A stretch of DNA of 24,221 bases. Source: Acidimicrobiaceae bacterium. Its GTDB lineage: Bacteria; Actinomycetota; Acidimicrobiia; Acidimicrobiales; UBA8190. The position numbers and the translations under genes were made by a program. Every line of letters starts with the position of its first letter. Within the stretch, counting starts at the first letter, position 1. The stretch spans positions 1 to 24,221 of the forward strand of contig PLZB01000060.1 in the NCBI GenBank assembly GCA_003151955.1, in the 5' to 3' direction. Shown here in pieces: positions 11,411-21,492 of this stretch. Under the pieces are notes generated by a model. That model worked only from the letters and a program-made list of their open reading frames with translations, did no database searches and was not told where the DNA came from.

Positions 11411-12784
11411 CTACTCGGCCGGGCCCCCGTCGAGGAGCTGCTCCCCGATGATGAGCTCCCCGGCGATGGCCGGGGTGTAGGGCCAGGCGTCGGTGGTGGA
11501 ACCGGCGGTGGCCCGGATGGAATCCTCACCGGCGGACGCCGCCGGGGCCGACCCGGTGGTGGCGAGGGCCCAGACCCCGACGGGCCAGTAGTTGGCGGCC
11601 AGGGAGGAGACCACCCCGTTGGCCTCCTGGCGGGCCGACGCCGTGGGCTCGGCCCAGGCCCCCTGGCCGGCGGTGAACCGGGCCAGGAGGTCGGCCGCCC
11701 GGGGCCCGCTGACGAGGCCATAGGCCACGGCCCAGACCTGCTCGAGGCCGTCGGGGTAGAGGAGGGACCAGTCGGTGGTCTGGTGGATGCCGTCCCCGTG
11801 GACGGCCCAGTCGTAGGCCCCGGTGGCGGGGTCCCAGAGGGCGGCCACCCCGGCGGCCAGCCGGCCGGCGTCCGACCCGGCCCGGGTGGCCAGGGCGGGA
11901 TCCCCCAGGGCCCCGGCCAGGGTCACGGCCGCCTCGAGGCCCCCGTAGGTCTCGGCCTGGTCCATCAGGTACTTGACGTGGTAGCTCGGCTTGGCCCAGG
12001 TCAGCCCGTCGCTGTCCTGGGTGGACTCGATCACCGAGACGGCGGCGGCGACGGCCCCGGCCGAGGCGGTCAGCCGGCCCTGGTCACCGCTGGCGAGCCA
12101 GGCGTCCCGGACCGCCAGCAGGAAGGTCCCGGCCGTGGCGTCGGTGGAGTCGACGTCACCGGTGGGGACGGTCCCGCCCCCCGAGACGGTGGCGTTGGTC
12201 ACGACCCCGCCGGGTCCCTGGTTGGCCGCGTACCAGCCGATCTCCCGCCAGGCCTCCCCGGCCAGGGAGGCGTTTCCCGTCATCGAGGCCGCCCGGGCCA
12301 GGCCCATCGCCGCGTAGTTCGACAGGTAGGGCCAGACCTCCCCGCTCCCCGGGTAGGTGGTGATGGCCCCGTCGGCCAGCTGGGCCGACTCGATGAAGGT
12401 CACCTCGGCACCGACCTGGGCGCTCGCCGCCACCTGGGCCCGGTTCCCGGCCACCCCGACCGTCGTCGTCGTGGTGGAGGACGTCGAGGACGACGTGGTG
12501 GTCGAGGTCCCCGGGGGGGAGACGGAGGTCGTGGTGGTGGAGGAGCTCGACGTCGTGGAGGTCGAGCCGCCGGAGACCGCCGTGGGCGTCGGGCCGGCCG
12601 CTGACGGGGACGTCGTGGTCGAGCCGACGAGGCCGACGGCGGCAGCCTGGGTGGTGGTCGGCCCGGTGGAGACGGCCCGTGCCGCCCGGGGGGCGGCGGA
12701 GCTGCCGGCAGTGCCCCCGAGGAGTCCCGACGCGGCGACGATGATCCCGATCACCGCAGCCTGCCGTCCCCGCCTCTCCTGCAC
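11411..12784 (-). CDS. Secreted protein: a Sec signal peptide, a ~90-aa Ser/Thr-rich linker, and a ~330-aa C-terminal domain of unknown function.
   Basis: The signal peptide reads MQERRGRQAAVIGIIVAASGLLGGTAGSSAA. The linker reads TSTTSSSSTTTTSVSPPGTSTTTSSSTSSTTTTT. The C-terminal domain is rich in W, Y, A and G, with no assignable family. GTG start at 12784; an alternative GTG lies 10 codons downstream. Confidence 0.6.
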   Translation of the reverse strand: MQERRGRQAAVIGIIVAASGLLGGTAGSSAAPRAARAVSTGPTTTQAAAVGLVGSTTTSPSAAGPTPTAVSGGSTSTTSSSSTTTTSVSPPGTSTTTSSSTSSTTTTTVGVAGNRAQVAASAQVGAEVTFIESAQLADGAITTYPGSGEVWPYLSNYAAMGLARAASMTGNASLAGEAWREIGWYAANQGPGGVVTNATVSGGGTVPTGDVDSTDATAGTFLLAVRDAWLASGDQGRLTASAGAVAAAVSVIESTQDSDGLTWAKPSYHVKYLMDQAETYGGLEAAVTLAGALGDPALATRAGSDAGRLAAGVAALWDPATGAYDWAVHGDGIHQTTDWSLLYPDGLEQVWAVAYGLVSGPRAADLLARFTAGQGAWAEPTASARQEANGVVSSLAANYWPVGVWALATTGSAPAASAGEDSIRATAGSTTDAWPYTPAIAGELIIGEQLLDGGPAE

Positions 12785-12985
12785 TTTTCAATGATCGGCG
12801 GACGGCCGGCCCCCCCTGAGCCCTCCCCGCTCTTTTCCTTCACAATGGACTCACAACACTACCCTCCACCAGCAATTTCTCGACGCACCGTGGGCGCTCT
12901 CAACACTCCTAGTGGTAGGGCCAAACGCGCCGCGACCCCGAGGAGCGGCGGGAACCTCGAGGTCGCGGCGATCTTGTTGGGTGGA

Positions 12986-14143
12986 TCAGGTGGTGATGCC
13001 CCCGCCCCCACCCTCGGAGCCGTCCCGGCCCCGAAGACCGGCCGGACCGTTGGGGCCCCCGCCGCCGGGTCCACCGAAGGCCCCGGTCGAGCCGGCGGGG
13101 ATGGCGATGATCGAGGTGGCCGTGACGGTCCCGTCTGCCGCCTTGCTGCCCATGACGATGATCCGGTCACCAACGGCAAGGCTGCTGAGGCTTCCCGTTC
13201 CCGAGGGGCTCCGGTAGGTGGTCGACGAGGTGGTGTCCACCGTCGTCGTCCCCCCTCCCGGTGTCGTCACGGTGATCGTCCCCCCGCTGACCGAAGCCAC
13301 CGTTCCCGTCGTCCCCGGCATCCCGGTCATGCCTCCCGGCATGCCCCCGAACCCCCGGTGTCCACCATGGCCGCCGCCGGCGGTCGGACCGCTGGGGCCG
13401 ACGGTGACCGAGGTGGCGTCGAGCTCGGTGTGGTCGGCGTCCACCGTGCCGGTGGCGACGACCCGGGCCCCGACGGTCACTACCGAGGCCGTGGCGGCCG
13501 CTCCCCCCTGGGAGTAGGTGGTCGACGGCGAGGTCTTCACCGTCCGGTAGAGACCCTGGACGTCGGAGAGGGTGATGGCTCCGCCCGTCACCGAGACCAC
13601 CGTCCCCTCGACCCGGGGGGAGACGATGTCGAGCTCGGCCGCCACCGGGGACACCGCCGCCGCCGTGGTCGTCGTCGAGGAGGACGGGCTGTGGGCGGGT
13701 CGGACGACCCGGATGTCGACGAGCTCGCCGACGGCCAGCGCGGACCGGTCCACGGTGGTCCCGTCCCGCTTGTAGATCGTGGCGCCGTCGGTGGACACCG
13801 TCCGGCTCGAGCCCCCCGGTCCGGAGACCGTCACCGTGGTGGCCCCGACCGCGGTCACGGTGGCCTCCCCAGCCGGGCCCCGCCCCCCGCCCGGCAACCC
13901 GGGAAGCCCGTGGGGGAGACCGCCGGGTGCGGTCGACGTGGTCGTCGACGAAGTGCCCCCGGCGGCGGCGGCGACGCCGTAGCCACCGAGTCCCAGCATC
14001 GCCGTCAGGCCCCCGGCGGCGACGGCCCAGCGGATCCCCCGGCCCCGGGTCGGCCCTTCCGGCGCCGGGGCGGGGATCGGATCGATCCAGCTGGCCACGA
14101 CAGGATCCTGGGCAGCTCCGGGCTCGGACTCAGCTGGGCTCAT
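12986..14143 (-). CDS. Membrane-anchored protein (cytoplasmic N-terminus, one TM) with three DUF5666-like beta-repeat domains separated by Gly/Ser/Thr-rich linkers.
   Basis: The TM segment is IRWAVAAGGLTAMLGLGGYGVAAAA. Three ~60-aa repeats follow the pattern GTV..V.G.TITV....G...TV.....T.Y........L..L.VGD.V. The gene lies immediately downstream of the two-component system on the same strand. Confidence 0.65.
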   Translation of the reverse strand: MSPAESEPGAAQDPVVASWIDPIPAPAPEGPTRGRGIRWAVAAGGLTAMLGLGGYGVAAAAGGTSSTTTSTAPGGLPHGLPGLPGGGRGPAGEATVTAVGATTVTVSGPGGSSRTVSTDGATIYKRDGTTVDRSALAVGELVDIRVVRPAHSPSSSTTTTAAAVSPVAAELDIVSPRVEGTVVSVTGGAITLSDVQGLYRTVKTSPSTTYSQGGAAATASVVTVGARVVATGTVDADHTELDATSVTVGPSGPTAGGGHGGHRGFGGMPGGMTGMPGTTGTVASVSGGTITVTTPGGGTTTVDTTSSTTYRSPSGTGSLSSLAVGDRIIVMGSKAADGTVTATSIIAIPAGSTGAFGGPGGGGPNGPAGLRGRDGSEGGGGGITT

Positions 14144-14244
14144 CCACGCTCCTCGGCTCGGCTAGCAAGATCCGCCACGATCAGTATCGGTCCCGATCCT
14201 TTGCGTCACCCCTGAGCAACCTGGGAATCTGCCGTGAATCCGCC

Positions 14245-15720
14245 TCAGCTCTTGACTTCCGCCTCAGGAGCCCCACCAGCCGCTTCCCGGTCCGGGACCT
14301 CGGCTGGGAGCTGGACCCAGAAGACCGACCCGCCACCCTCCCGGGGCACCATCCCGAGCTGTCCCCCGTGGGCCCGGACGATGGCAGAGGTGATGGCCAG
14401 CCCCAGGCCGGCCCCCCCGCTGGCCCGCTGCCGCGACGGGTCGAACCGGTGGAACGCCTCGAAGATCTTCTCCCGTTCCCCCTCCGCCACCCCCGGGCCC
14501 CGATCGGCCACCTCGAGTCGGGCCTCGGGTCCGGCCGCCCCCAACCAGACCTCGATCGGTGTCCCCTCCGGGGTGTACTTGCCGGCATTCGAGAGGAGGT
14601 TGTCGAGGACCTGGCGGAGACGCTCGGCGTCGCCCCGGACCATGACCCGGGGCGGGGACACGATGGTGACCGACCGCCCGGGGGCGGAGACCCCGAAGGC
14701 GTCGACGGCGGCGGCGGCCACCCCGGCCAGGTCGACGGAGCCCTCCTCCAGGGGACGCTCCCGGTCCAGCCGGGCCAGGAGGAGGAGGTCTTCCACCAGG
14801 TGGCCCATCCGGTCCGCCTCGGCCCTGATGTGGTGCATGGCGAGGGCCAGGTCCTCGGGCCGGTCCCGGGCCCCCCGATCGAACATCTCGGCGTAGCCCC
14901 GGATCGATGTCAGCGGGGTCCTGAGCTCGTGGGAGGCGTCGGCAAGGAACCGCCGGAGCCGTTCCTCCGAGGCCGCCCGGGCCGCGAAGGCCACCTCGAT
15001 CTCCCCCAGCATCGAGTTGAGGGCCAGCCCGAGCCGGCCCACCTCGCTTCCCTCCTCCCGGACCTCGACCCGCTGGGAGAGGTCCCCGGCCGCGATCGCC
15101 CCCGCCGTGGTCGCCATCTGGTCCAGGGGCCGCAACCCCCGCCGGACCACCCACCACACCAGGGCCATCAGGCCGAGGAGGACCCCTATCGAGACCAGGA
15201 TCTCGATCCGGAGCAGCCGCCCCAGGGTCTGGTCGACATCGGTCAGGGGAAAGGCGACGATCAGGGTTCCGGCCACCTCCCCGCTGCCATTGTTGTAGAC
15301 CGGCTCGGCCCGGACCCGGTAGGTGACCGGCGACGGCCCGGCACTCTCCGCAACGAAGAGGACGGCCGACACCCCCGGGCCACCCGAGCCGGGCAGATCG
15401 GCGGGGAGGACCGGCGGGGAGAGATTCCCCCCGAAGGGGTCAGGCCCCACCAGGGCCGCCCCCGTCGTGTCCCGCAGCTCCCCGACCGTCCCGATCGGGA
15501 TGAGCGAGGCGTCACCGCTCGACCGGAAACCCCCCGAGGGTCCCACCACCGGGTCCCGGACGAGGTGCTGGAGGACGACCTGGTCCGAGCCGGCCAGCTG
15601 GCTGTCGATCCGGCTCAGGAGGAAGGAGTGGAGGGAGGTGTAGGTGACAACCCCCGACGCCCCCAGCCCGACCGCCACGATCCCGACCAGGAGGGCCAGG
15701 AGCCGGATCCGGAGCGTCAC
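14245..15720 (-). CDS. Sensor histidine kinase with TM1, a ~150-aa extracytoplasmic sensor domain, TM2, and HAMP, HisKA and HATPase_c domains.
   Basis: The H-box reads FLADASHELRTPLTSIRGYAEM. The N-box/G-boxes read LLSNAGKYTP, ADRGPGV and GGAGLGLAI. GTG start at 15720, 8 bp after the response-regulator stop. The listed 745-aa ORF merges this frame with antisense of the response-regulator gene. Confidence 0.85.
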   Translation of the reverse strand: MTLRIRLLALLVGIVAVGLGASGVVTYTSLHSFLLSRIDSQLAGSDQVVLQHLVRDPVVGPSGGFRSSGDASLIPIGTVGELRDTTGAALVGPDPFGGNLSPPVLPADLPGSGGPGVSAVLFVAESAGPSPVTYRVRAEPVYNNGSGEVAGTLIVAFPLTDVDQTLGRLLRIEILVSIGVLLGLMALVWWVVRRGLRPLDQMATTAGAIAAGDLSQRVEVREEGSEVGRLGLALNSMLGEIEVAFAARAASEERLRRFLADASHELRTPLTSIRGYAEMFDRGARDRPEDLALAMHHIRAEADRMGHLVEDLLLLARLDRERPLEEGSVDLAGVAAAAVDAFGVSAPGRSVTIVSPPRVMVRGDAERLRQVLDNLLSNAGKYTPEGTPIEVWLGAAGPEARLEVADRGPGVAEGEREKIFEAFHRFDPSRQRASGGAGLGLAITSAIVRAHGGQLGMVPREGGGSVFWVQLPAEVPDREAAGGAPEAEVKS

Positions 15721-15728
15721 CGCCCCGC

Positions 15729-16463
15729 CTACTCCCCGGGACCCGTCGAACCGGCCTCCGACGGCGGCCGCAGGCTGTAGCCCACCCCCCGGACCGTCTG
15801 GATGAGCCGGGGCCCGAGGGAGTCGACCTTCCGCCGGAGGTAGCTGATGTAGATCTCGACCACGTTGGCGTTCCCGTCGAAGTCGTAATTCCAGACCCGG
15901 TCGAGGATCTGGGCCTTGGAGACGACCCGCCCAGCGTTGAGCAGCAGGTAGTGGAGGAGCTTGAACTCGGTCGGCGTCAGCTCGACGACGACCGGACCCC
16001 GCCGGACGACGTGGCTCTCCTCGTCGAGGACCAGGTCGGCCACCTGGAGCCGTCCCGTGTCCCGCTCCCCCGGGTGGGCCCGACGGAGGATGGCCCGGGC
16101 CCGGACGATGAGCTCCTCCACGCTGAAGGGCTTCGTCATGTAGTCGTCGCCCCCCAGGGTGAACCCCCGGAGCTTGTCCTCCAGGGTGTCCCGGGCCGTC
16201 AGGAAGAGGACCGGGAGGCCCTCCACGATCCGGTCCCCCCCCAACCGCCGGAGGACCTCGAACCCGTCGAGGTCGGGCAGCATCACGTCGAGGACGAGGA
16301 GCTGGGGCCGGAATGTCGGGATGGCCTCGAGGGCCTCCCGGCCGGTGTGGGCGACCTGGACCTCCATCCCCTCGTAGCGCAGTGCCATGGCCACCAGGTC
16401 CGTGATGCCCTTTTCGTCGTCCACCACCAGGACCCGCTGTCCGCTGCCCTCTGCCATCGACAT
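15729..16463 (-). CDS. OmpR/PhoB-family response regulator.
   Basis: The receiver domain is VLVVDDE...LLVLDVMLPDLDGFEV...TARD...K. The winged-helix output domain is LTPTEFKLLHYLLLNAGRVVSKAQILDRVWNYDF...VEIYISYLRRKV. Confidence 0.9.
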   Translation of the reverse strand: MSMAEGSGQRVLVVDDEKGITDLVAMALRYEGMEVQVAHTGREALEAIPTFRPQLLVLDVMLPDLDGFEVLRRLGGDRIVEGLPVLFLTARDTLEDKLRGFTLGGDDYMTKPFSVEELIVRARAILRRAHPGERDTGRLQVADLVLDEESHVVRRGPVVVELTPTEFKLLHYLLLNAGRVVSKAQILDRVWNYDFDGNANVVEIYISYLRRKVDSLGPRLIQTVRGVGYSLRPPSEAGSTGPGE

Positions 16464-16480
16464 CGTCTCCGATCATGCCC

Positions 16481-16533
16481 ACCGAACCTGTGGGTCTCCT
16501 TTGACCCTACCCACAGGTTCCTGCCAGGAACGT
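16481..16533. promoter_or_regulatory. Cluster of palindromes in the divergent response-regulator / ABC promoter region: a 12-bp inverted repeat GAACCTGTGGGT-N13-ACCCACAGGTTC (16481-16517), then GTTCCTG-C-CAGGAAC, and the 10-bp palindrome GGAACGTTCC (16524-16533).
   Basis: Read directly. The 115-bp gap between RR start 16463 and permease ATG 16579 is dominated by these symmetric elements. Confidence 0.5.
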
Positions 16534-16578
16534 TCCCTACCATCCCCGGAGCACCGATCCTCGACCGGAGGGGAACCC

Positions 16579-18465
16579 ATGTTCTCGATCGGCTATCTCT
16601 GGAACGAGCTCCGGCGACGCTGGAGTCGGACCCTCGTCACCGCCGTGGGCCTCGCCGCCGGTGTCGGCCTCGTCATGGCCATCATCGGCGTCTCCGCCGG
16701 CCTGACCGACGCCCAGGGCAAGGCCCTCTCCCCCCTCTCCACGGTCGGGACCGACATCATCGTCACCCGGACCGTGGGTGCCACCACCGCCGCGGCTGCC
16801 TCGACCACGACGACGACGACCGCCCCGACCGGCTTCGGTGGGCCCGGTGCCGGGGGCGGTCCCGGCGGAGGCGGCGGCGGCGGCTTCTTCGGTGGAGGGG
16901 CCCGGGGTCTTGGAGGCACGAGCGCCATCAGCTCCCTCAACTCCACCGACCAGGCCACCCTCCTGAACGCCAACTCCTCGATCCTCACCGACCTCTCCAA
17001 GCTCGGCCCGGCCGGGACCGCATTCACCTACGACTTCTTCGTCCCCGGCACCCTCATCACCTTCCCCGACCAGGCCCTCCAGGTCGTCTCGGCCGTGAAG
17101 GGCGTCCAGTCCGCCGTCCCCGGCCTCTCCCTCCAGGCCCTCCACGAGAGCGGCACCGTCCCCGCCATCTCCGCCTCGATCCAGACCGGGGGCCAGACCA
17201 TCACGGCCACCTCGACCCCGGCTCCCCTCACCGCGGCCGAGCGGACCCAGGTCCGGCAGTGCCTCCAGAACAGCGGGGCCTTCCCCAACTCCACCACCAC
17301 GACAACCCCGGCCGGCTCCGGGCCCCCCACCGCCACCCCCGGCGCCTCGGGCAACCCCACCCGGGGCGGCGGCTTCGGCGGCGGTGGCGGGGGCGCTCTG
17401 GACATCGGTGCCCTCGACAGCCGCTTCGGCTCCGCCTTCACCACCTGCCTCCCGGCCCGCTACCAGCAGTACGAGGCCCAGGTCGTCGTTCCCACCCAGA
17501 CCATCACCCAGGTCCTGAACCCGCCCCAGACCGACACCCAGACCAAGAGCTACACCGTGGCCGGCGTGAACCCCTCGAACACCACCACCGGGCTGATCAC
17601 GAAGGCCCAGCTCGTCTCCGGGTCCTGGTTCGGCTCCTCCCCCGCCGACCAGCTCCTCGTCAACACCGCCTACGCCAGCTCGAATTCCATCAAGGTGGGC
17701 CAGACCCTCACCATCGACAGCACCACCTTCACCGTCGTCGGCCTCGTCAACCCCACCCTGACCGGGAACACCTCCGACCTCTACTTCGACCTCGCCACCC
17801 TCCAGAGCCTGGCCAGCAACGCCGGCCGGGTCAACGAGGTCCTCGTCAAGGTCACCGACGCCAGCCAGGTCGACGCCGTGGCCGCTGCCATCCAGAAGGA
17901 GCTCCCCGGGGCCCAGGTCCTCACCTCGAAGAGCCTGGCCAGCCAGGTCACCGGCAGCCTCTCCCAGGCCCATTCCCTGGCCACCAACCTCGGTGGGGCC
18001 CTGGCCGTCATCGTCCTGTTGGCCGCCTTCCTCATCGCCGCCCTCCTGACCCTGGCCAGCGTGGCCAAGCGGGTCCGGGAGATCGGCACCCTCAGGGCCC
18101 TGGGCTGGTCCAAGGGCCGGGTCGTCCGCCAGATCGTGGCGGAGACAGTCGGCATCGGGCTCCTGGGCGGTGTCATCGGGATCGGCCTCGGCGTGGGGAT
18201 CTGCGCCCTCATCACCCACCTGGGCCCGACCCTGACCTCCACCTCGACCGGCACCGCCGTCGGGGCCTCCACGGCCGGGAGCGTCTTCCACCAGGCCACC
18301 ACGGCCGCGGCGAGCACGAGCGTCCGCCTGACCGCTCCCATCAAGCTCTCCACGGTGGGGCTGGGGCTCCTCTTCGGCGGCCTGGGTGGCTTCCTGTCCG
18401 GCGGGGCCGGCGGCTGGCGGGCGGCCCGGCTCCCACCGGCCTCGGCCATGCGGGACCTGGGATGA
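16579..18465 (+). CDS. ABC transporter permease, FtsX/MacB-type. It has one N-terminal TM, a very large (~480-aa) extracytoplasmic domain with Gly-rich inserts, and three C-terminal TMs.
   Basis: A GGAGGGG RBS lies 5 nt before ATG 16579. The C-terminal FtsX core is AVIVLLAAFLIAALLTLASVAKRVREIGTLRALGWSKGRVVRQIVAE...GIGLLGG. The Gly-runs are GFGGPGAGGGPGGGGGGGFFGGGARGLGG and RGGGFGGGGGGALDIG. Confidence 0.8.
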   Translation: MFSIGYLWNELRRRWSRTLVTAVGLAAGVGLVMAIIGVSAGLTDAQGKALSPLSTVGTDIIVTRTVGATTAAAASTTTTTTAPTGFGGPGAGGGPGGGGGGGFFGGGARGLGGTSAISSLNSTDQATLLNANSSILTDLSKLGPAGTAFTYDFFVPGTLITFPDQALQVVSAVKGVQSAVPGLSLQALHESGTVPAISASIQTGGQTITATSTPAPLTAAERTQVRQCLQNSGAFPNSTTTTTPAGSGPPTATPGASGNPTRGGGFGGGGGGALDIGALDSRFGSAFTTCLPARYQQYEAQVVVPTQTITQVLNPPQTDTQTKSYTVAGVNPSNTTTGLITKAQLVSGSWFGSSPADQLLVNTAYASSNSIKVGQTLTIDSTTFTVVGLVNPTLTGNTSDLYFDLATLQSLASNAGRVNEVLVKVTDASQVDAVAAAIQKELPGAQVLTSKSLASQVTGSLSQAHSLATNLGGALAVIVLLAAFLIAALLTLASVAKRVREIGTLRALGWSKGRVVRQIVAETVGIGLLGGVIGIGLGVGICALITHLGPTLTSTSTGTAVGASTAGSVFHQATTAAASTSVRLTAPIKLSTVGLGLLFGGLGGFLSGGAGGWRAARLPPASAMRDLG

Positions 18466-19310
18466 GCCCGGTGGAGAACGATCCGAGTGACCCCGAGAGG
18501 AGCGAGACCATGACCGACGAGGAACTCGAGACCGACAGGGAGCTCGACACCGACGGCGAGCTCCGGGGACCGGAGACGACCGGGACCGGGGCGGCCCAGC
18601 CGCCCGCCACGTTCGACCCGCCCGGGATCCTCTACGAGCTCAGGCAGATCGAGCGTCGCTACCAGCGGGGCAGCACCCCGGTCCTGGCCCTGAAGTCGCT
18701 CGACCTCGACATCCGGGCCGGCGAGTTCCTCTCGATCGAGGGACCGAGCGGCTCGGGCAAGAGCACCCTCCTCCAGCTCCTCGGCGGCCTCGACGTGGCC
18801 ACGGCCGGGACCATCCGGCTCGACGGCCAGGAGCTGGGATCCTGCCGGGACAAGAGCCTGACCGCCATCCGGAGCCAGCAGATCGGCTTCGTCTTCCAGC
18901 AGTTCAACCTGATCCCCACCCTGACCGCCCTCGAGAACGTCGCCATCGCCATGGTCCCCCACCACGTCCGCCGGGCCGACCGGGTGGCCCGGGCCACCGA
19001 GCTCCTCGAAGGTGTCGGCCTGGGCCAGCGCCTCGACCACCTCCCCTCCCGGCTCTCCGGGGGGGAGCAGCAGCGGGTGGCCATCGCCCGGGCCCTGGCC
19101 AACCGGCCCCGGGTCATCATCGCCGACGAGCCCACCGGGAACCTCGACTCCGAGAGCGCCAACGACGTCCTCGGTCTCCTCGAGGAGCTCCAGACCGGCG
19201 ACCAGCCCGTGACGATCATCGTGGCCACCCACGACCCCGAGGTGGCCGGCCGGGCCCGCCGCCGGGTCAGGCTCCGAGACGGCGCCGTCGTCGAGGACGT
19301 GGCGGCCTGA
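18462..19310 (+). CDS. ABC transporter ATP-binding protein (MacB/LolD-like) with an acidic N-terminal extension.
   Basis: Walker A GPSGSGKST, Q-loop, signature LSGGEQQRVAIARAL, Walker B VIIADEPTGNLD, and H-loop ATHD are present. ATG 18462 overlaps the permease stop (ATGA). An alternative start at ATG 18510 has a GAGAGGAG RBS. Either way, at least ~45 D/E/T-rich residues precede the ATPase core. Confidence 0.85.
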   Translation: MSPVENDPSDPERSETMTDEELETDRELDTDGELRGPETTGTGAAQPPATFDPPGILYELRQIERRYQRGSTPVLALKSLDLDIRAGEFLSIEGPSGSGKSTLLQLLGGLDVATAGTIRLDGQELGSCRDKSLTAIRSQQIGFVFQQFNLIPTLTALENVAIAMVPHHVRRADRVARATELLEGVGLGQRLDHLPSRLSGGEQQRVAIARALANRPRVIIADEPTGNLDSESANDVLGLLEELQTGDQPVTIIVATHDPEVAGRARRRVRLRDGAVVEDVAA

Positions 19311-19330
19311 GCCCGAGATCCCACTCGGGC
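19311..19330 (+). terminator. GC-rich hairpin GCCCGAG-atccca-CTCGGGC directly after the ABC ATPase stop.
   Basis: A 7-bp perfect stem with a 6-nt loop, starting 1 nt after the TGA. No U-tract follows. Confidence 0.3.
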
Positions 19331-19336
19331 GAGTTG

Positions 19337-19774
19337 ATGGCCCTCGACCCGGACGTCGTCGAGGTCGCCGGAGCCCTCCGGGTGGGCGTCGGCCTTCTCC
19401 GGCGACGGCTCCGCCAGCTCCAGGCCGACGACGGGCTCACCCTGCCCGAGACCTCGGCCCTGGCCTGGCTCGACCGGGTCGGGCCGTCCACGGCCAGCGG
19501 GCTGGCCCGGCTGGAGCAGATCAGCCCCCAGTCCATGGGGGCCACCCTGGCCGGCCTCGAGGCCCGGGGCCTCGTCGAGCGGCGCCCGGACCCCGGGGAC
19601 GGCCGCCAGTCGGTGCTGACGTTGACCGGGGCCGGTCTCGACGAGCTCCGCAGCAGGCGGGACGCCCTGACCCGGCAGCTGGCCAAGGCCCTCTCGACGT
19701 CGTTCTCCCCGACGGAGCTCCGACAGCTGGCCGCAGCCACCCCGCTGCTCGAGCGCCTGGCCCAGACCATCTGA
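19337..19774 (+). CDS. MarR-family transcriptional regulator.
   Basis: The winged-helix region reads LTLPETSALAWLDRVGPSTASGLARLEQISPQSMGATLAGLEARGLVERRPDPGDGRQSVLTLTGAG. The stop overlaps the MFS start (TGATG at 19772-19776). Confidence 0.85.
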   Translation: MALDPDVVEVAGALRVGVGLLRRRLRQLQADDGLTLPETSALAWLDRVGPSTASGLARLEQISPQSMGATLAGLEARGLVERRPDPGDGRQSVLTLTGAGLDELRSRRDALTRQLAKALSTSFSPTELRQLAAATPLLERLAQTI

Positions 19775-21492
19775 TGCCGTCGGCCGGGTCGCTCCAGCAG
19801 GTGGCCCGGGCCGACGACCGCCACAAGTGGGTGGCCCTCTCGATCACGACCCTCGGGGGGCTCATGGCCTCCATCGACGGCTCGATCATGCTGATCGCCA
19901 TGCCCGACATCTTCCGGGGCATCCACCTCGATCCCCTCCGGCCCGGCAACAGCTTCTACCTGCTCTGGATGATCCTGGGCTTCCTCATCGTCACCAGTGT
20001 CCTCGTCCTGAGCCTGGGCCGACTCGGCGACATCTACGGACGGGTCCGCGTCTACAACCTCGGCTTCGCCACCTTCACCTTCTTCTCCCTCCTCCTCTCC
20101 GTCACCTGGATGTCCGGTTCGGCGGCGGGAATCTGGCTCATCGTGATCCGGATCTTCCAGGGGGTGGGCGCGGCCATGCTGCTGGCCCAGTCGGCCGCCA
20201 TCCTCACCGACGCCTTCCCCGAGCACCAGCGGGGTCTGGCCCTGGGCATCAACCAGACGGCCAACATCAGCGGCCTCTTCATCGGCCTGGTCCTGGGAGG
20301 CCTGCTGGCCCCGATCAACTGGCGGCTGATCTTTCTGGTCTCGGTCCCGATCGGCCTCTTCGCCACCATCTACGGCTACCGGGCCCTCCGGGAGGTGGGT
20401 GTCTCCCAGCGGGCCGGGATCGACTGGGCCGGCAACGCCACCTTCGCCGCCGGCCTGGTCCTGACCCTGGTCGGGATCACCAGCGGCATCCAGCCCTACG
20501 CCGGCGACGCCATGGGGTGGACCAACCCCGTCGTCCTGGCCGAGCTGGCCGGCGGAGCCGCTCTCCTCGTGGCGTTCTGCCTCATCGAGTCCAAGGTAGA
20601 CGAACCAATGTTCCGTCTCCCCCTCTTTCGGATCCGGGCCTTCACCGCCGGCGTCCTGGCCAGCTTCCTGGCCGCTCTGGGCCGCGGCGGCCTCATGTTC
20701 ATGCTCGTCATCTGGCTCCAGGGGATCTGGTTGCCCCTCCATGGCTACAGCTTCGCCGTGACCCCCCTCTGGGCCGGCGTCGCCATGCTGCCACTCACGG
20801 CCGGGTTCCTCATCGCCGGCCCACTCTCGGGAGTCCTGTCGGACCACTTCGGGGCCCGGCCCTTCGCCACGGCCGGCATGCTCGGATCGGCCGCCTGCTT
20901 CGCCCTGCTCGAGACCCTGCCCATCGACTTCCCCTACTGGACCTTCGGGCTCCTCCTCCTGGCCATGGGCCTGGCCATGGGCGGGTTCTCCTCACCGAAC
21001 CGGGCCGGCGTGATGAACTCCCTCCCGGCATCCGACCGGGGGGCCGGATCCGGGATGAACACCACCTTCCAGAACTCGGCCCAGGTCCTCTCCATCGGGA
21101 TCTTCTTCACCCTGATGATCGTCGGTCTGGCCTCGACCCTGCCGACAAGCCTGGCCCAGGGCCTCGCCGACCACGGGGTCCCGCCGACCACCGCGGTCCG
21201 GGTCTCCCACCTACCTCCCGTCTCGACCCTCTTCGCCGCTTTCCTGGGCTACAACCCGATACAGCACCTACTGGGCCCATCGGTCCTGGCCCACCTCACC
21301 GGGGCCCAACGTCGGGTCCTCCTGGGCCGTGAGTTCTTCCCGTCCCTCGTCTCCGGTCCCTTCAGGGCCGGTCTCCACGTGGCCTTCGACTTCTCCGTCC
21401 TGGCCTGCCTGGCCGCGGCCGCGGCAAGCTGGACCCGGGGCAGGAACCCCGCCGACCCAGCTCGGGCTACCCGGCGGCTCCGGGCTCCGTAG
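19774..21492 (+). CDS. MFS transporter, DHA2-like (~14 TMS) drug:H+ antiporter family (EmrB/QacA-like).
   Basis: It is 572 aa and hydrophobic throughout, with MFS motifs (GRLGDIYGRVRVY, motif A-like; GPLSGVLSDHFGARP). It is translationally coupled to MarR. Confidence 0.85.
   Translation: MPSAGSLQQVARADDRHKWVALSITTLGGLMASIDGSIMLIAMPDIFRGIHLDPLRPGNSFYLLWMILGFLIVTSVLVLSLGRLGDIYGRVRVYNLGFATFTFFSLLLSVTWMSGSAAGIWLIVIRIFQGVGAAMLLAQSAAILTDAFPEHQRGLALGINQTANISGLFIGLVLGGLLAPINWRLIFLVSVPIGLFATIYGYRALREVGVSQRAGIDWAGNATFAAGLVLTLVGITSGIQPYAGDAMGWTNPVVLAELAGGAALLVAFCLIESKVDEPMFRLPLFRIRAFTAGVLASFLAALGRGGLMFMLVIWLQGIWLPLHGYSFAVTPLWAGVAMLPLTAGFLIAGPLSGVLSDHFGARPFATAGMLGSAACFALLETLPIDFPYWTFGLLLLAMGLAMGGFSSPNRAGVMNSLPASDRGAGSGMNTTFQNSAQVLSIGIFFTLMIVGLASTLPTSLAQGLADHGVPPTTAVRVSHLPPVSTLFAAFLGYNPIQHLLGPSVLAHLTGAQRRVLLGREFFPSLVSGPFRAGLHVAFDFSVLACLAAAAASWTRGRNPADPARATRRLRAP

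Follow-up and report, generated by a model that had tools for sequence, protein, structure and literature searches.

A two-component system (TCS) lying back to back with an ABC transporter can be read either as a drug-sensing module, in which the transporter itself informs the kinase, or as a regulator next to its target promoters. We examined which of the two fits a locus in the window (the whole stretch of 24,221 nucleotides that was analysed), for which a likeness to BceRS-BceAB had originally been predicted. We consider it fairly probable that the locus consists of a PhoPR-type TCS and three promoters that are most likely under its direct control, a reading that comes from sequence comparison and from analogy to known systems.

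Gene content and organization of the locus

The genes are as follows:

12986-14143, minus strand: DUF5666 protein, 385 aa, three tandem DUF5666 (OB-fold) domains with Gly-rich linkers, exported or anchored
14245-15720, minus strand: histidine kinase (HK), 491 aa, with HAMP, HisKA and HATPase_c domains; GTG start 8 bp past the stop of the response regulator
15729-16463, minus strand: response regulator (RR) of the OmpR/PhoB family, 244 aa, Pfam Response_reg and Trans_reg_C
16579-18465, plus strand: permease of a type VII (MacB/FtsX-fold) ABC transporter, 628 aa, Pfam FtsX and the C-terminal two thirds of MacB_PCD
18462-19310, plus strand: MacB/LolD-type ATPase, 282 aa, ATGA-coupled to the permease

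All genes of the original prediction were found at their coordinates, its spacings (8 bp from RR to HK, 115 bp between the divergent genes and an ATGA shared by permease and ATPase) are exact, and domain searches matched DUF5666, FtsX and MacB_PCD as it had proposed. The assignment of the three minus-strand genes to one operon is unproven, because the DUF5666 gene begins 101 bp past the HK stop and has a predicted promoter of its own. A MarR gene lies immediately 3' of the transporter genes.

The three DUF5666 repeats are real: scanned separately they scored 28.8, 20.0 and 45.5 bits, the whole protein matched DUF5666 (PF18914) at 66.5 bits, above the gathering score, and its AlphaFold model consists of three confident OB-fold barrels. 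Regarding the proposed single TM helix, an N-terminal hydrophobic stretch is present but weak, no 19-residue Kyte-Doolittle window reaching 1.6; since it ends in AAAA, the N-terminus may be a cleavable signal peptide instead of an anchor. The suggestion that this protein is a partner of the kinase is not supported, as its nearest homologues adjoin no TCS and its promoter carries a box of the target type. In the long loci that carry the closest TCS orthologues (L089, the syntenic L091, L093 and L100) the gene is missing, and it is largely not conserved next to the TCS elsewhere, the exception being one lineage (L105, L106 and L108) in which it follows HK and a similar box element lies 76-97 nt before its start.

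Relation of the two-component system to PhoP-PhoR

Compared with solved structures in the PDB, the RR matched Mycobacterium tuberculosis (Mtb) PhoP best (256 bits), PrrA scoring 158 bits and RegX3 and MtrA that or less; RR and PhoP are 56.5% identical over 223 aa. Measured against the DNA-contact residues of Mtb PhoP (PMC4832192), RR keeps N212, V213, E215, Y217 and Y220 as well as the wing residue R237, that is, five of six recognition-helix contacts plus the wing Arg, the one difference being Ser216, which is Ile here; the DNA-recognition helix is otherwise nearly identical. HK has two TM helices, at residues 1-30 and 166-196, with an extracytoplasmic loop of ~135 aa between them and HAMP thereafter. 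This topology fits that of Mtb PhoR, in which two TM helices stand on either side of a ~120-aa sensor loop and are followed by C-terminal cytosolic phosphotransfer domains (PMC4620462). The HK N-terminus, (V/M)TLR(I/L)RLL, is common to the orthologues in L014, L027 and L091. Mtb PhoR is 485 aa long, against 491 aa for HK. Judged by sequence, the TCS closely resembles tuberculosis PhoPR (Rv0757/Rv0758), PhoP being the closest regulator among solved structures.

The setting differs from that of Mtb. The host is an uncultured bacterium of the Acidimicrobiales type from soil or wood, and the TCS has as neighbouring predicted targets a MacB-type ABC transporter and a DUF5666 protein, neither of which, to our knowledge, is in the described Mtb PhoP regulon (pks2, pks3, espACD, aprABC, mcr7). 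PhoPR of the Mtb type responds to acidic pH, chloride or Mg2+ and controls envelope lipid genes; no pks or mmpL genes were found in the window.

Predicted PhoP-type boxes and their conservation

The upstream regions of RR genes from TCS orthologues share yTCACAG-N4-yTCACAG, which by sequence comparison equals the published PhoP consensus, TCACAG(N5)TCACAG or TCACAGC(N4)TCACAGC, a direct repeat with a strict 4-bp spacer. A matrix was trained on the RR-gene upstream regions of related loci, with the window left out. Its three highest-scoring matches among 48,000 window positions each face a gene, namely that for RR, the permease or the DUF5666 protein, and lie upstream of it in the intergenic stretches of 101 bp and 115 bp on either side of the TCS. 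A box before the regulator's own gene is a feature shared with Mtb PhoP. The literature consensus at two mismatches or fewer matched the window solely in the intergenic gaps of this cluster. The motif was also present in loci outside the training set (L094, L096-98, L105, L106, L108, L112 and L115; scores 14.7-19.9). The predicted elements are:

14196-14238, minus strand: DUF5666-side box, four tandem 7-bp half-sites with an 11-bp period (TTCACGG, TTCCCAG, CTCAGGG, CGCAAAG)
14183-14188, minus strand: -10 hexamer GATACT of the DUF5666 promoter, 10-nt spacer after the box
16485-16505, minus strand: RR-side PhoP-box-like direct repeat GTCAAAGGAGACCCACAGGTT, facing the RR gene
16472-16477, minus strand: -10 hexamer CATGAT of the RR promoter, 10-nt spacer after the box
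16510-16530, plus strand: permease-side PhoP-box-like direct repeat CCCACAGGTTCCTGCCAGGAA, starting 69 nt before the permease ATG
16538-16543, plus strand: -10 hexamer TACCAT of the permease promoter, 10-nt spacer after the box
12840-12856, plus strand: weak box-like site TCACAATGGACTCACAA, intergenic, past the stop codon of the DUF5666 gene and before the neighbouring gene

The DUF5666-side box has the highest matrix score in the whole window (18.8), includes match number 4 (7.1) as well and fits the literature consensus at two mismatches or fewer. The RR-side repeat is the second-best matrix match (17.2) and likewise a consensus match; the RR mRNA is probably leaderless. The permease-side repeat, third-best, is the weakest of the three (10.0) and has CTGCCAG as its second half-site, a variant of which, TTGCCAG, is conserved in the permease-side boxes of L003, L069 and L076. 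All three sites have the same layout of box, 10 nt and -10 hexamer, whereas TCACAATGGACTCACAA (matrix score 7.1, consensus match) differs from them in orientation and -10 geometry.

This layout is that of the E. coli PhoB pho-box promoters, in which a pair of 7-bp direct repeats, 4 bp apart, lies 10 nt before the -10 hexamer and takes the place of a -35; the pho-box half-site, however, is CTGTCAT, as opposed to TCACAG here, and PhoB is a relative at the family level only. The geometry, together with PhoB being the top NCBIfam match of RR (205 bits, below the 296-bit cutoff) and with the GTTCAC core of actinomycete PHO boxes, could mean that the TCS is the phosphate-limitation PhoRP of the Streptomyces type and that the transporter and the OB-fold protein belong to a phosphate-starvation regulon. 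We regard this as unlikely: the half-site TCACAG is the exact Mtb PhoP consensus, HK resembles Mtb PhoR in its large outer loop and HAMP, while E. coli-type PhoR lacks a sensing loop, and none of the genes identified as neighbours of the TCS, in the window or in L091, is a Pho-associated one (pst, phoU or a phosphatase gene). As to the regulator that occupies the boxes, related RRs such as MtrA recognise similar half-sites, so that a paralogous regulator could bind them; comparative genomics and analogy to Mtb PhoP point to RR.

The permease-side box was found at a score of at least 10 in 23 of 61 related loci, 41-111 nt before the permease start and on the permease strand with one exception (L012), compared with 1.3% of 775 other upstream regions (Fisher p=5e-21) and 1.4% of random 320-nt pieces; the loci include many related genomes, and these counts are not fully independent. 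In about 19 of the 23 box-bearing loci, neither an RR nor an HK is encoded within 9 kb. When the window was aligned with L001, L003, L012, L069 and L076, five of the permease loci closest to it, conservation was confined to the box, TACCAT, the ribosome-binding site and the ATG. The remaining 38 of the 61 loci scored below 10 and one permease subgroup carries a different upstream repeat, indicating that control by RR is not universal for the family. The TCS lies within 9 kb of the permease in 5 of 80 permease loci, and the transporter occurs in none of four long orthologous TCS loci. Where TCS and this type of transporter are adjacent, three gene orders are seen (L012; L014, L027 and L116; L041).

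This rarity of adjacency would be expected if the juxtaposition were incidental, the repeats being promoter elements or chance matches and the transporter being regulated independently, for example by the downstream MarR. The weak permease-side box, the occurrence of the consensus at the chance rate in the window when three mismatches are allowed, and the resemblance of a second half-site TTGACA to a -35 hexamer agree with such an arrangement. Against it stand the enrichment before permeases at fixed orientation and distance and the retention of both half-sites at an 11-bp period across subgroups whose flanks have diverged. Moreover, the box is 10 nt, not 17, from the -10 hexamer and the second half-site therefore cannot be a normal -35, and a MarR-MFS pair beside the transporter is not conserved across related loci. 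We hold an incidental juxtaposition to be quite improbable, slightly more so than a phosphate regulon. The functional connection of TCS and transporter originally proposed is supported by the RR-type direct repeat, which is conserved ahead of the transporter genes both in the window and across many related genomes.

The transporter and the proposed mode of regulation

The permease has four TM helices and, between TM1 and TM2, an outer domain (residues ~46-463) of ~420 aa rather than the ~480 aa first estimated. Pfam scores were 51 bits for FtsX and 41 bits for MacB_PCD. In a Foldseek search its AF2 model matched MacB, LolCDE, the S. pneumoniae non-canonical ABC transporter 5xu1, HrtBA and YtrEF at the top, with a probability of 1.00 for MacB and LolCDE. 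With a 4-TM core of the FtsX kind, Porter and Sabre subdomains outside the membrane and a cognate LolD/MacB-type ATPase, it belongs to the MacB/FtsX (type VII ABC) superfamily. As in MacB, LolCDE, HrtBA, YtrEF and Spr0694-0695, four TM helices are combined with an outer domain between TM1 and TM2, the Sabre and Porter portion fits MacB_PCD, and a LolD/MacB-like ATPase is encoded by a gene of its own with translational coupling to that of the permease; the best PDB structural matches are of this type. In contrast to these, the outer domain is about twice as long, a beta-hairpin loop is added between TM3 and TM4 and no MacA-like adaptor gene adjoins the transporter. A canonical MacB, LolC/E or FtsX equivalog was rejected, since every NCBIfam model stayed below its cutoff (lolCE 48/362, MacB 19/966 and FtsX_actino 19/250 bits) and the outer domain is ~420 aa, not ~200 aa. 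The outer domain includes:

16771-17481, plus strand: family-specific insertion in the permease outer domain, residues 65-301 (alignments A1 and A2)

This insertion of ~240 aa, which lies outside the MacB_PCD profile, comprises a Thr/Gly linker 1 (65-120), a folded core (~120-235), a Thr/Pro/Gly linker 2 (236-275) and two helices. Both low-complexity linkers are disordered (pLDDT <50 at residues 65-120 and 239-275) and contain the poly-Gly runs that had been noticed (residues 92-107 and 263-273). The folded core is conserved and Phe103 in linker 1 is invariant; Cys228 and Cys290, which flank linker 2, are invariant among 14 sequences, and among 75 sequences this still holds for Cys290, while Cys228 is kept in at least 90%. 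A search with the insertion found no more than 140 cluster representatives; the long ones (480-680 aa) all matched near residues ~55-300, the others being shorter proteins or fragments. The Gly-rich, oversized outer domain is nothing unusual, as the Gly/Thr-rich form is the norm in a family of >1,700 detected homologues, spread over uncultured Acidimicrobiia, other Actinomycetota, Dormibacterota and Chloroflexota. The ATPase matches LolD and MacB at 224-229 bits. Its acidic N-terminal tail is present (56 residues before the ABC core, 18462-18629, with 16 Asp/Glu and 3 Lys/Arg) but does not define the group, being variable among homologues with a median extension of 18 aa over 65 loci.

These topologies bear on the proposal that the transporter is itself the detector of peptide antibiotics, informs the kinase through direct contact and clears the drug, with the DUF5666 protein as accessory sensor. 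As in BceRS-BceAB, a TCS here adjoins an FtsX-fold ABC transporter whose promoter it is predicted to control from a common regulatory region, and BceAB is among the distant fold matches of the permease (rank 43-44). Bce permeases, however, are built of 10 TM helices and have their outer domain, of 200-250 aa, inserted between TM7 and TM8, their kinases have no outer domain but a short linker between two TM helices, and transporter and kinase genes are co-located in the vast majority of genomes (PMC11009047). Here the permease has four helices with its outer domain between the first two, the ~135-aa outer loop and HAMP of HK are not those of an intramembrane-sensing kinase, co-location is as rare as counted above, and DUF5666 is missing beside the closest orthologous TCS. 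BceRS-BceAB is, besides, a system of Firmicutes, and the organisms here are of the Actinomycetota type. A Bce-like module is therefore very unlikely, the least probable of the readings considered. Given predicted RR sites in the promoters of RR, the transporter and the DUF5666 gene, the locus would be an ordinary unit of a regulator and its targets, not a Bce-type one.

In such a PhoPR-type unit, HK would sense an extracytoplasmic cue through its outer loop and phosphorylate the PhoP-like RR, which would bind in tandem as a dimer (at the DUF5666 promoter, a tetramer) to pairs of 7-bp direct repeats with a 4-bp spacer located 10 nt before the -10 hexamer, the box standing in for a -35 in the manner of a pho box. 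Binding would, we infer, activate rather than repress its own operon, the DUF5666 gene and the divergent permease-ATPase operon. The latter would encode a type VII 'mechanotransmission' ABC system of a large and uncharacterised permease family which, by analogy to MacB, LolCDE, HrtBA and FtsEX, probably works on a target within the membrane or beyond it instead of importing a solute.

Gene content and a PhoPR-type regulator

We listed the ORFs of the window (GC ~72%), inspected their start codons and scanned them against Pfam and NCBIfam, which confirmed every gene named in the original prediction.

Genes of the cluster (coordinates, strand, product, basis)
12986-14143, minus, DUF5666 protein; ORF and Pfam
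14245-15720, minus, histidine kinase (HK); HAMP, HisKA and HATPase_c domains
15729-16463, minus, OmpR-type response regulator (RR); ORF and Pfam/NCBIfam scans
16579-18465, plus, permease, FtsX/MacB_PCD; Pfam
18462-19310, plus, ABC ATPase; ORF and Pfam/NCBIfam scans

The DUF5666 gene, which had been assigned to the RR-HK operon, is indeed on the same strand but starts 101 bp beyond the HK stop, and the N-terminus of its product, described originally as a single-TM protein, has only a weakly hydrophobic stretch, possibly a signal peptide. Scanning positions 12700-19500 for standard sigma-70 promoters and intrinsic terminators yielded no matches; while uninformative on operon boundaries, the lack of a sigma-70 match fits activator-dependent promoters. 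Downstream of the transporter, on the same strand, a MarR regulator gene begins 24 bp past the ATPase stop with no terminator predicted in between, and overlaps an MFS transporter gene by one base (19334-21492, plus); this pair is not kept beside the transporter in other loci.

Comparison of RR with solved structures revealed Mycobacterium tuberculosis PhoP as its best relative (256 bits, 56.5% identity), followed by PrrA (158 bits). The PhoP contacts Asn212, Val213, Glu215, Tyr217, Tyr220 and Arg237 are conserved in RR and Ser216 is replaced by Ile. In HK, as in M. tuberculosis PhoR (PMC4620462), two TM helices enclose a sensor loop. Because no NCBIfam equivalog model reached its cutoff for the pair, we label the two-component system (TCS), as judged from its sequence, PhoPR-type instead of a proven orthologue. 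In M. tuberculosis, PhoPR is a master regulator of virulence; as regards the signal, the pair described here may, with low probability, be of the phosphate-responsive PhoRP type.

A copper or CusF-like function was considered on the grounds that the top NCBIfam match of HK is a heavy-metal sensor family, that some DUF5666 homologues have precomputed CusF_Ec matches and that the DUF5666 protein of the window contains a His/Met-rich stretch. We set this reading aside: the HK score is under the cutoff and the His/Met-rich stretch was found in none of the 11 aligned homologues. This stretch, HGGHRGFGGMPGGMTGMPG (residues 259-277; 13315-13371, minus), is located between OB repeats 2 and 3 and resembles copper-binding motifs, a likeness with no other support. 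Searches of the literature on DUF5666, or on PhoPR in combination with MacB or FtsX, returned nothing relevant to this family.

PhoP-like boxes in the intergenic gaps

Inspection of the sequence ahead of orthologous RR genes showed a direct repeat, yTCACAG-N4-yTCACAG, with an 11-bp period, a motif identical to the PhoP consensus published for M. tuberculosis (PMC4620462, PMC4832192). A weight matrix was built from 13 such RR-promoter sites, leaving out those of the window, and when both strands of the 24 kb were searched with it, the three best matches all fell in the gaps of this cluster.

Predicted boxes (coordinates, strand, matrix score, position)
14218-14238, minus, 18.8; box 1, directly past the HK stop, facing the DUF5666 gene
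16485-16505, minus, 17.2; box 2, facing the RR gene
16510-16530, plus, 10.0; box 3, facing the permease gene

Each box is followed, after 10 nt, by a -10-like hexamer (GATACT for DUF5666, CATGAT for RR and TACCAT for the permease), and the DUF5666 promoter carries four half-sites in tandem. Transcription would accordingly start near 16550 (plus) for the permease, at 16463-16465 (minus) for RR and at ~14176 (minus) for DUF5666. TCS loci outside the training set likewise have a box upstream of RR. Searching with the literature consensus at up to two mismatches also gave three window matches, all in the gaps of this cluster; the count is not significant (1.07 expected), the placement is, and at three mismatches the consensus occurs in the window at chance rate.

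Analysis of the permease promoters in 61 loci revealed a box scoring at least 10 in 23 and lower scores in the other 38. The boxes are positioned 41-111 nt before the start codon on the permease strand, with one exception (L012, a locus with a divergent TCS). A score of at least 10 was reached by 1.3% of the 775 other upstream regions from these loci (Fisher p=5e-21, for genomes that are related to one another) and by 1.4% of random 320-nt segments. In most box-positive permease loci, such as L017, L069 and L076, no TCS is present nearby. Aligning the window with five of its closest permease loci left the box, TACCAT, the ribosome-binding site and ATG as the sole conserved blocks; the permease-side box is weak, yet its variant is conserved in the closest relatives.

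The most probable reading, with some reserve, is a circuit in which HK and the PhoP-like RR would drive three predicted box-dependent promoters of pho-box geometry, those of RR, DUF5666 and the permease; the transporter and the OB-fold DUF5666 protein would be outputs of the TCS. Related regulators can share half-sites. That the TCS and the transporter lie side by side by pure coincidence is unlikely, because the boxes are conserved, oriented and fixed in position.

Together, the two boxes between the divergent genes make up a perfect inverted repeat of 11 bp, AACCTGTGGGT ... ACCCACAGGTT (16485-16520). The same arrangement is found upstream of the RR gene in the permease locus L048; L003, L012, L069 and L076 have weaker copies, even in cases without a divergent RR gene. 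A subgroup of peat and bog Acidimicrobiaceae (L026, L029, L033, L034 and L042-L057) lacks the TCACAG box and carries, ~40-140 nt before the permease, a TAAGAC-N5-TAAGRC repeat, TAATAAT and the palindrome GGTCAAAnnnTTTGACC, elements that suggest control by another OmpR-type regulator and a dimeric repressor.

Gene neighborhoods of the transporter and the two-component system

A survey of 80 genomic loci holding the permease showed that the ATPase almost always comes next, that clustering of neighboring ORFs reveals no other conserved partner, and that DUF5666 is detected in none. A related RR and HK were found within 9 kb in only five of them, being divergent in L012, downstream in L014 and L027, and also present in L041 and L048. 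The reverse survey covered 36 metagenomic loci retrieved with HK. In the four long loci with the closest orthologues (L089, L091, L093, L100), RR-HK is present and the transporter and DUF5666 are both absent; L091 shares synteny with the far side of the window, but other genes take the place of DUF5666. The order HK-DUF5666 was seen solely in a lineage of greater distance (L105, L106, L108), and the three closest DUF5666 homologues examined reside in unrelated gene contexts. With the ATPase as the only conserved neighbor and DUF5666 homologues elsewhere, synteny was rejected as proof of a TCS-transporter-DUF5666 module.

These surveys bear on the Bce-like module of the original prediction, a TCS paired with its transporter and a DUF5666 accessory by analogy to BceRS-BceAB. 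By published criteria (PMC11009047) both the permease topology and the HK architecture contradict it, as does the rare co-location of TCS and transporter, and we consider it very improbable. The original observation stands and its interpretation does so only in part: overall, the locus is a conventional regulator-plus-targets arrangement from known families, in which a PhoPR-like regulator is combined with an uncharacterized variant of the type VII ABC transporters. A regulatory link may be stronger than the rarity of gene adjacency suggests, and promoter motifs expose it here.

An HtrA/MprAB-like envelope-stress system was also rejected, as an HtrA-like gene is present only in L041 and in no other orthologous locus. 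There, a protease with Trypsin_2 and PDZ domains (11526-12659) is encoded between the ATPase and RR-HK on one strand, an arrangement that recalls MprAB-PepD-type loci. On one metagenomic contig, L110 (1712-8443), a single strand encodes an ABC ATPase, a MacB-type permease of ordinary size, a DUF5666 protein, and then RR and HK (39% identical to the window HK); the parts list is equal and the transporter different. Beside the window cluster, a gene at 11411-12784 (minus) encodes a protein of 457 aa that has a hydrophobic segment at its N-terminus, a Ser/Thr-rich linker and no Pfam match; a weak box-like site (12840-12856) is located in the gap upstream of it. Since L091 has a homologue with 63% identity at a distance of 3 kb from its orthologous TCS, this gene marks the ancestral neighborhood.

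The permease family and its outer-domain insertion

Of 1,736 permease homologues detected, the best 120 share at least 59% identity and have lengths of about 590-650 aa; where a source is named, it is a MAG of Acidimicrobiales, Dormibacterota, Chloroflexota or Saccharimonadales. When 14 and 75 members were aligned, a common layout emerged: TM1, the first Porter strand, a Thr/Gly-rich linker 1 with an invariant Phe103, a conserved ~115-aa core, a Thr/Pro/Gly-rich linker 2, two helices, the MacB_PCD-matched part and three further TM helices. On either side of linker 2 are Cys228 and Cys290, both invariant in the 14-sequence alignment; among the 75 members, Cys290 is invariant and Cys228 conserved in at least 90%. 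In the AlphaFold model (mean pLDDT 68.7) both linkers are predicted to be disordered and the remainder folded, and Foldseek groups the model with MacB, LolCDE, S. pneumoniae 5xu1, HrtBA and YtrEF. The TM3-TM4 outer loop holds another family-specific feature, a ~35-aa beta-hairpin insertion outside the FtsX profile (residues 551-583; 18229-18327, plus) with an invariant His571.

A phmmer search with residues 110-305 retrieved only 140 cluster representatives among 1.84 billion proteins; matches of 480-680 aa all align near residues ~55-300, the others being shorter proteins or fragments. As far as sequence searches reach, the outer-domain insertion (residues 65-301) is confined to this permease family, and it is missing from all solved type VII ABC transporters. 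The outer domain, put at ~480 aa originally, measures about 420 aa, and its Gly-rich, oversized character, taken as unusual, is a trait of the whole family. Nor is the acidic ATPase N-terminus distinctive: in 65 loci the extension measures 18 aa at the median, being long and acidic in some close relatives only. High GC is insufficient to explain the poly-Gly runs, as the relative L008, at 39% GC, retains the Gly run; composition bias is not the whole explanation. Another relative, L016, has lost the run and retained the invariant FF.

Thr-rich sequence like that of the linkers is of the kind that actinobacteria O-mannosylate. Four of the closest permease relatives carry PMT_2 (GT-C) glycosyltransferase genes flanking the transporter (L003:7483-8832 and 11781-13145; L021; L069:11692-13002 and 13189-14529; L076:11633-12928); the window contains none.

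The transporter clade is large, unstudied and found across several phyla of uncultured soil bacteria, and its outer-domain insertion would merit study of both structure and function. We tentatively raise a broader idea, which we regard as doubtful at present, that the insertion-bearing transporter is a conserved, ancient core PhoPR target in uncultured Acidimicrobiia and related soil bacteria, with PhoPR ancestrally serving envelope homeostasis and the linkers and disulfide-pinned insertion forming a new module. If so, the ancestral PhoPR circuit would have served envelope homeostasis by driving a mechanotransmission machine with extracytoplasmic action, and the disordered Thr/Gly/Pro linkers and insertion may act, for example, as a glycosylated tether or partner-docking arm. 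The environmental relatives have a small predicted regulon recognizable by sequence, i.e. the TCS, the ABC transporter and sometimes an OB-fold protein, and would offer a simpler setting for asking what a PhoR-kind kinase senses.
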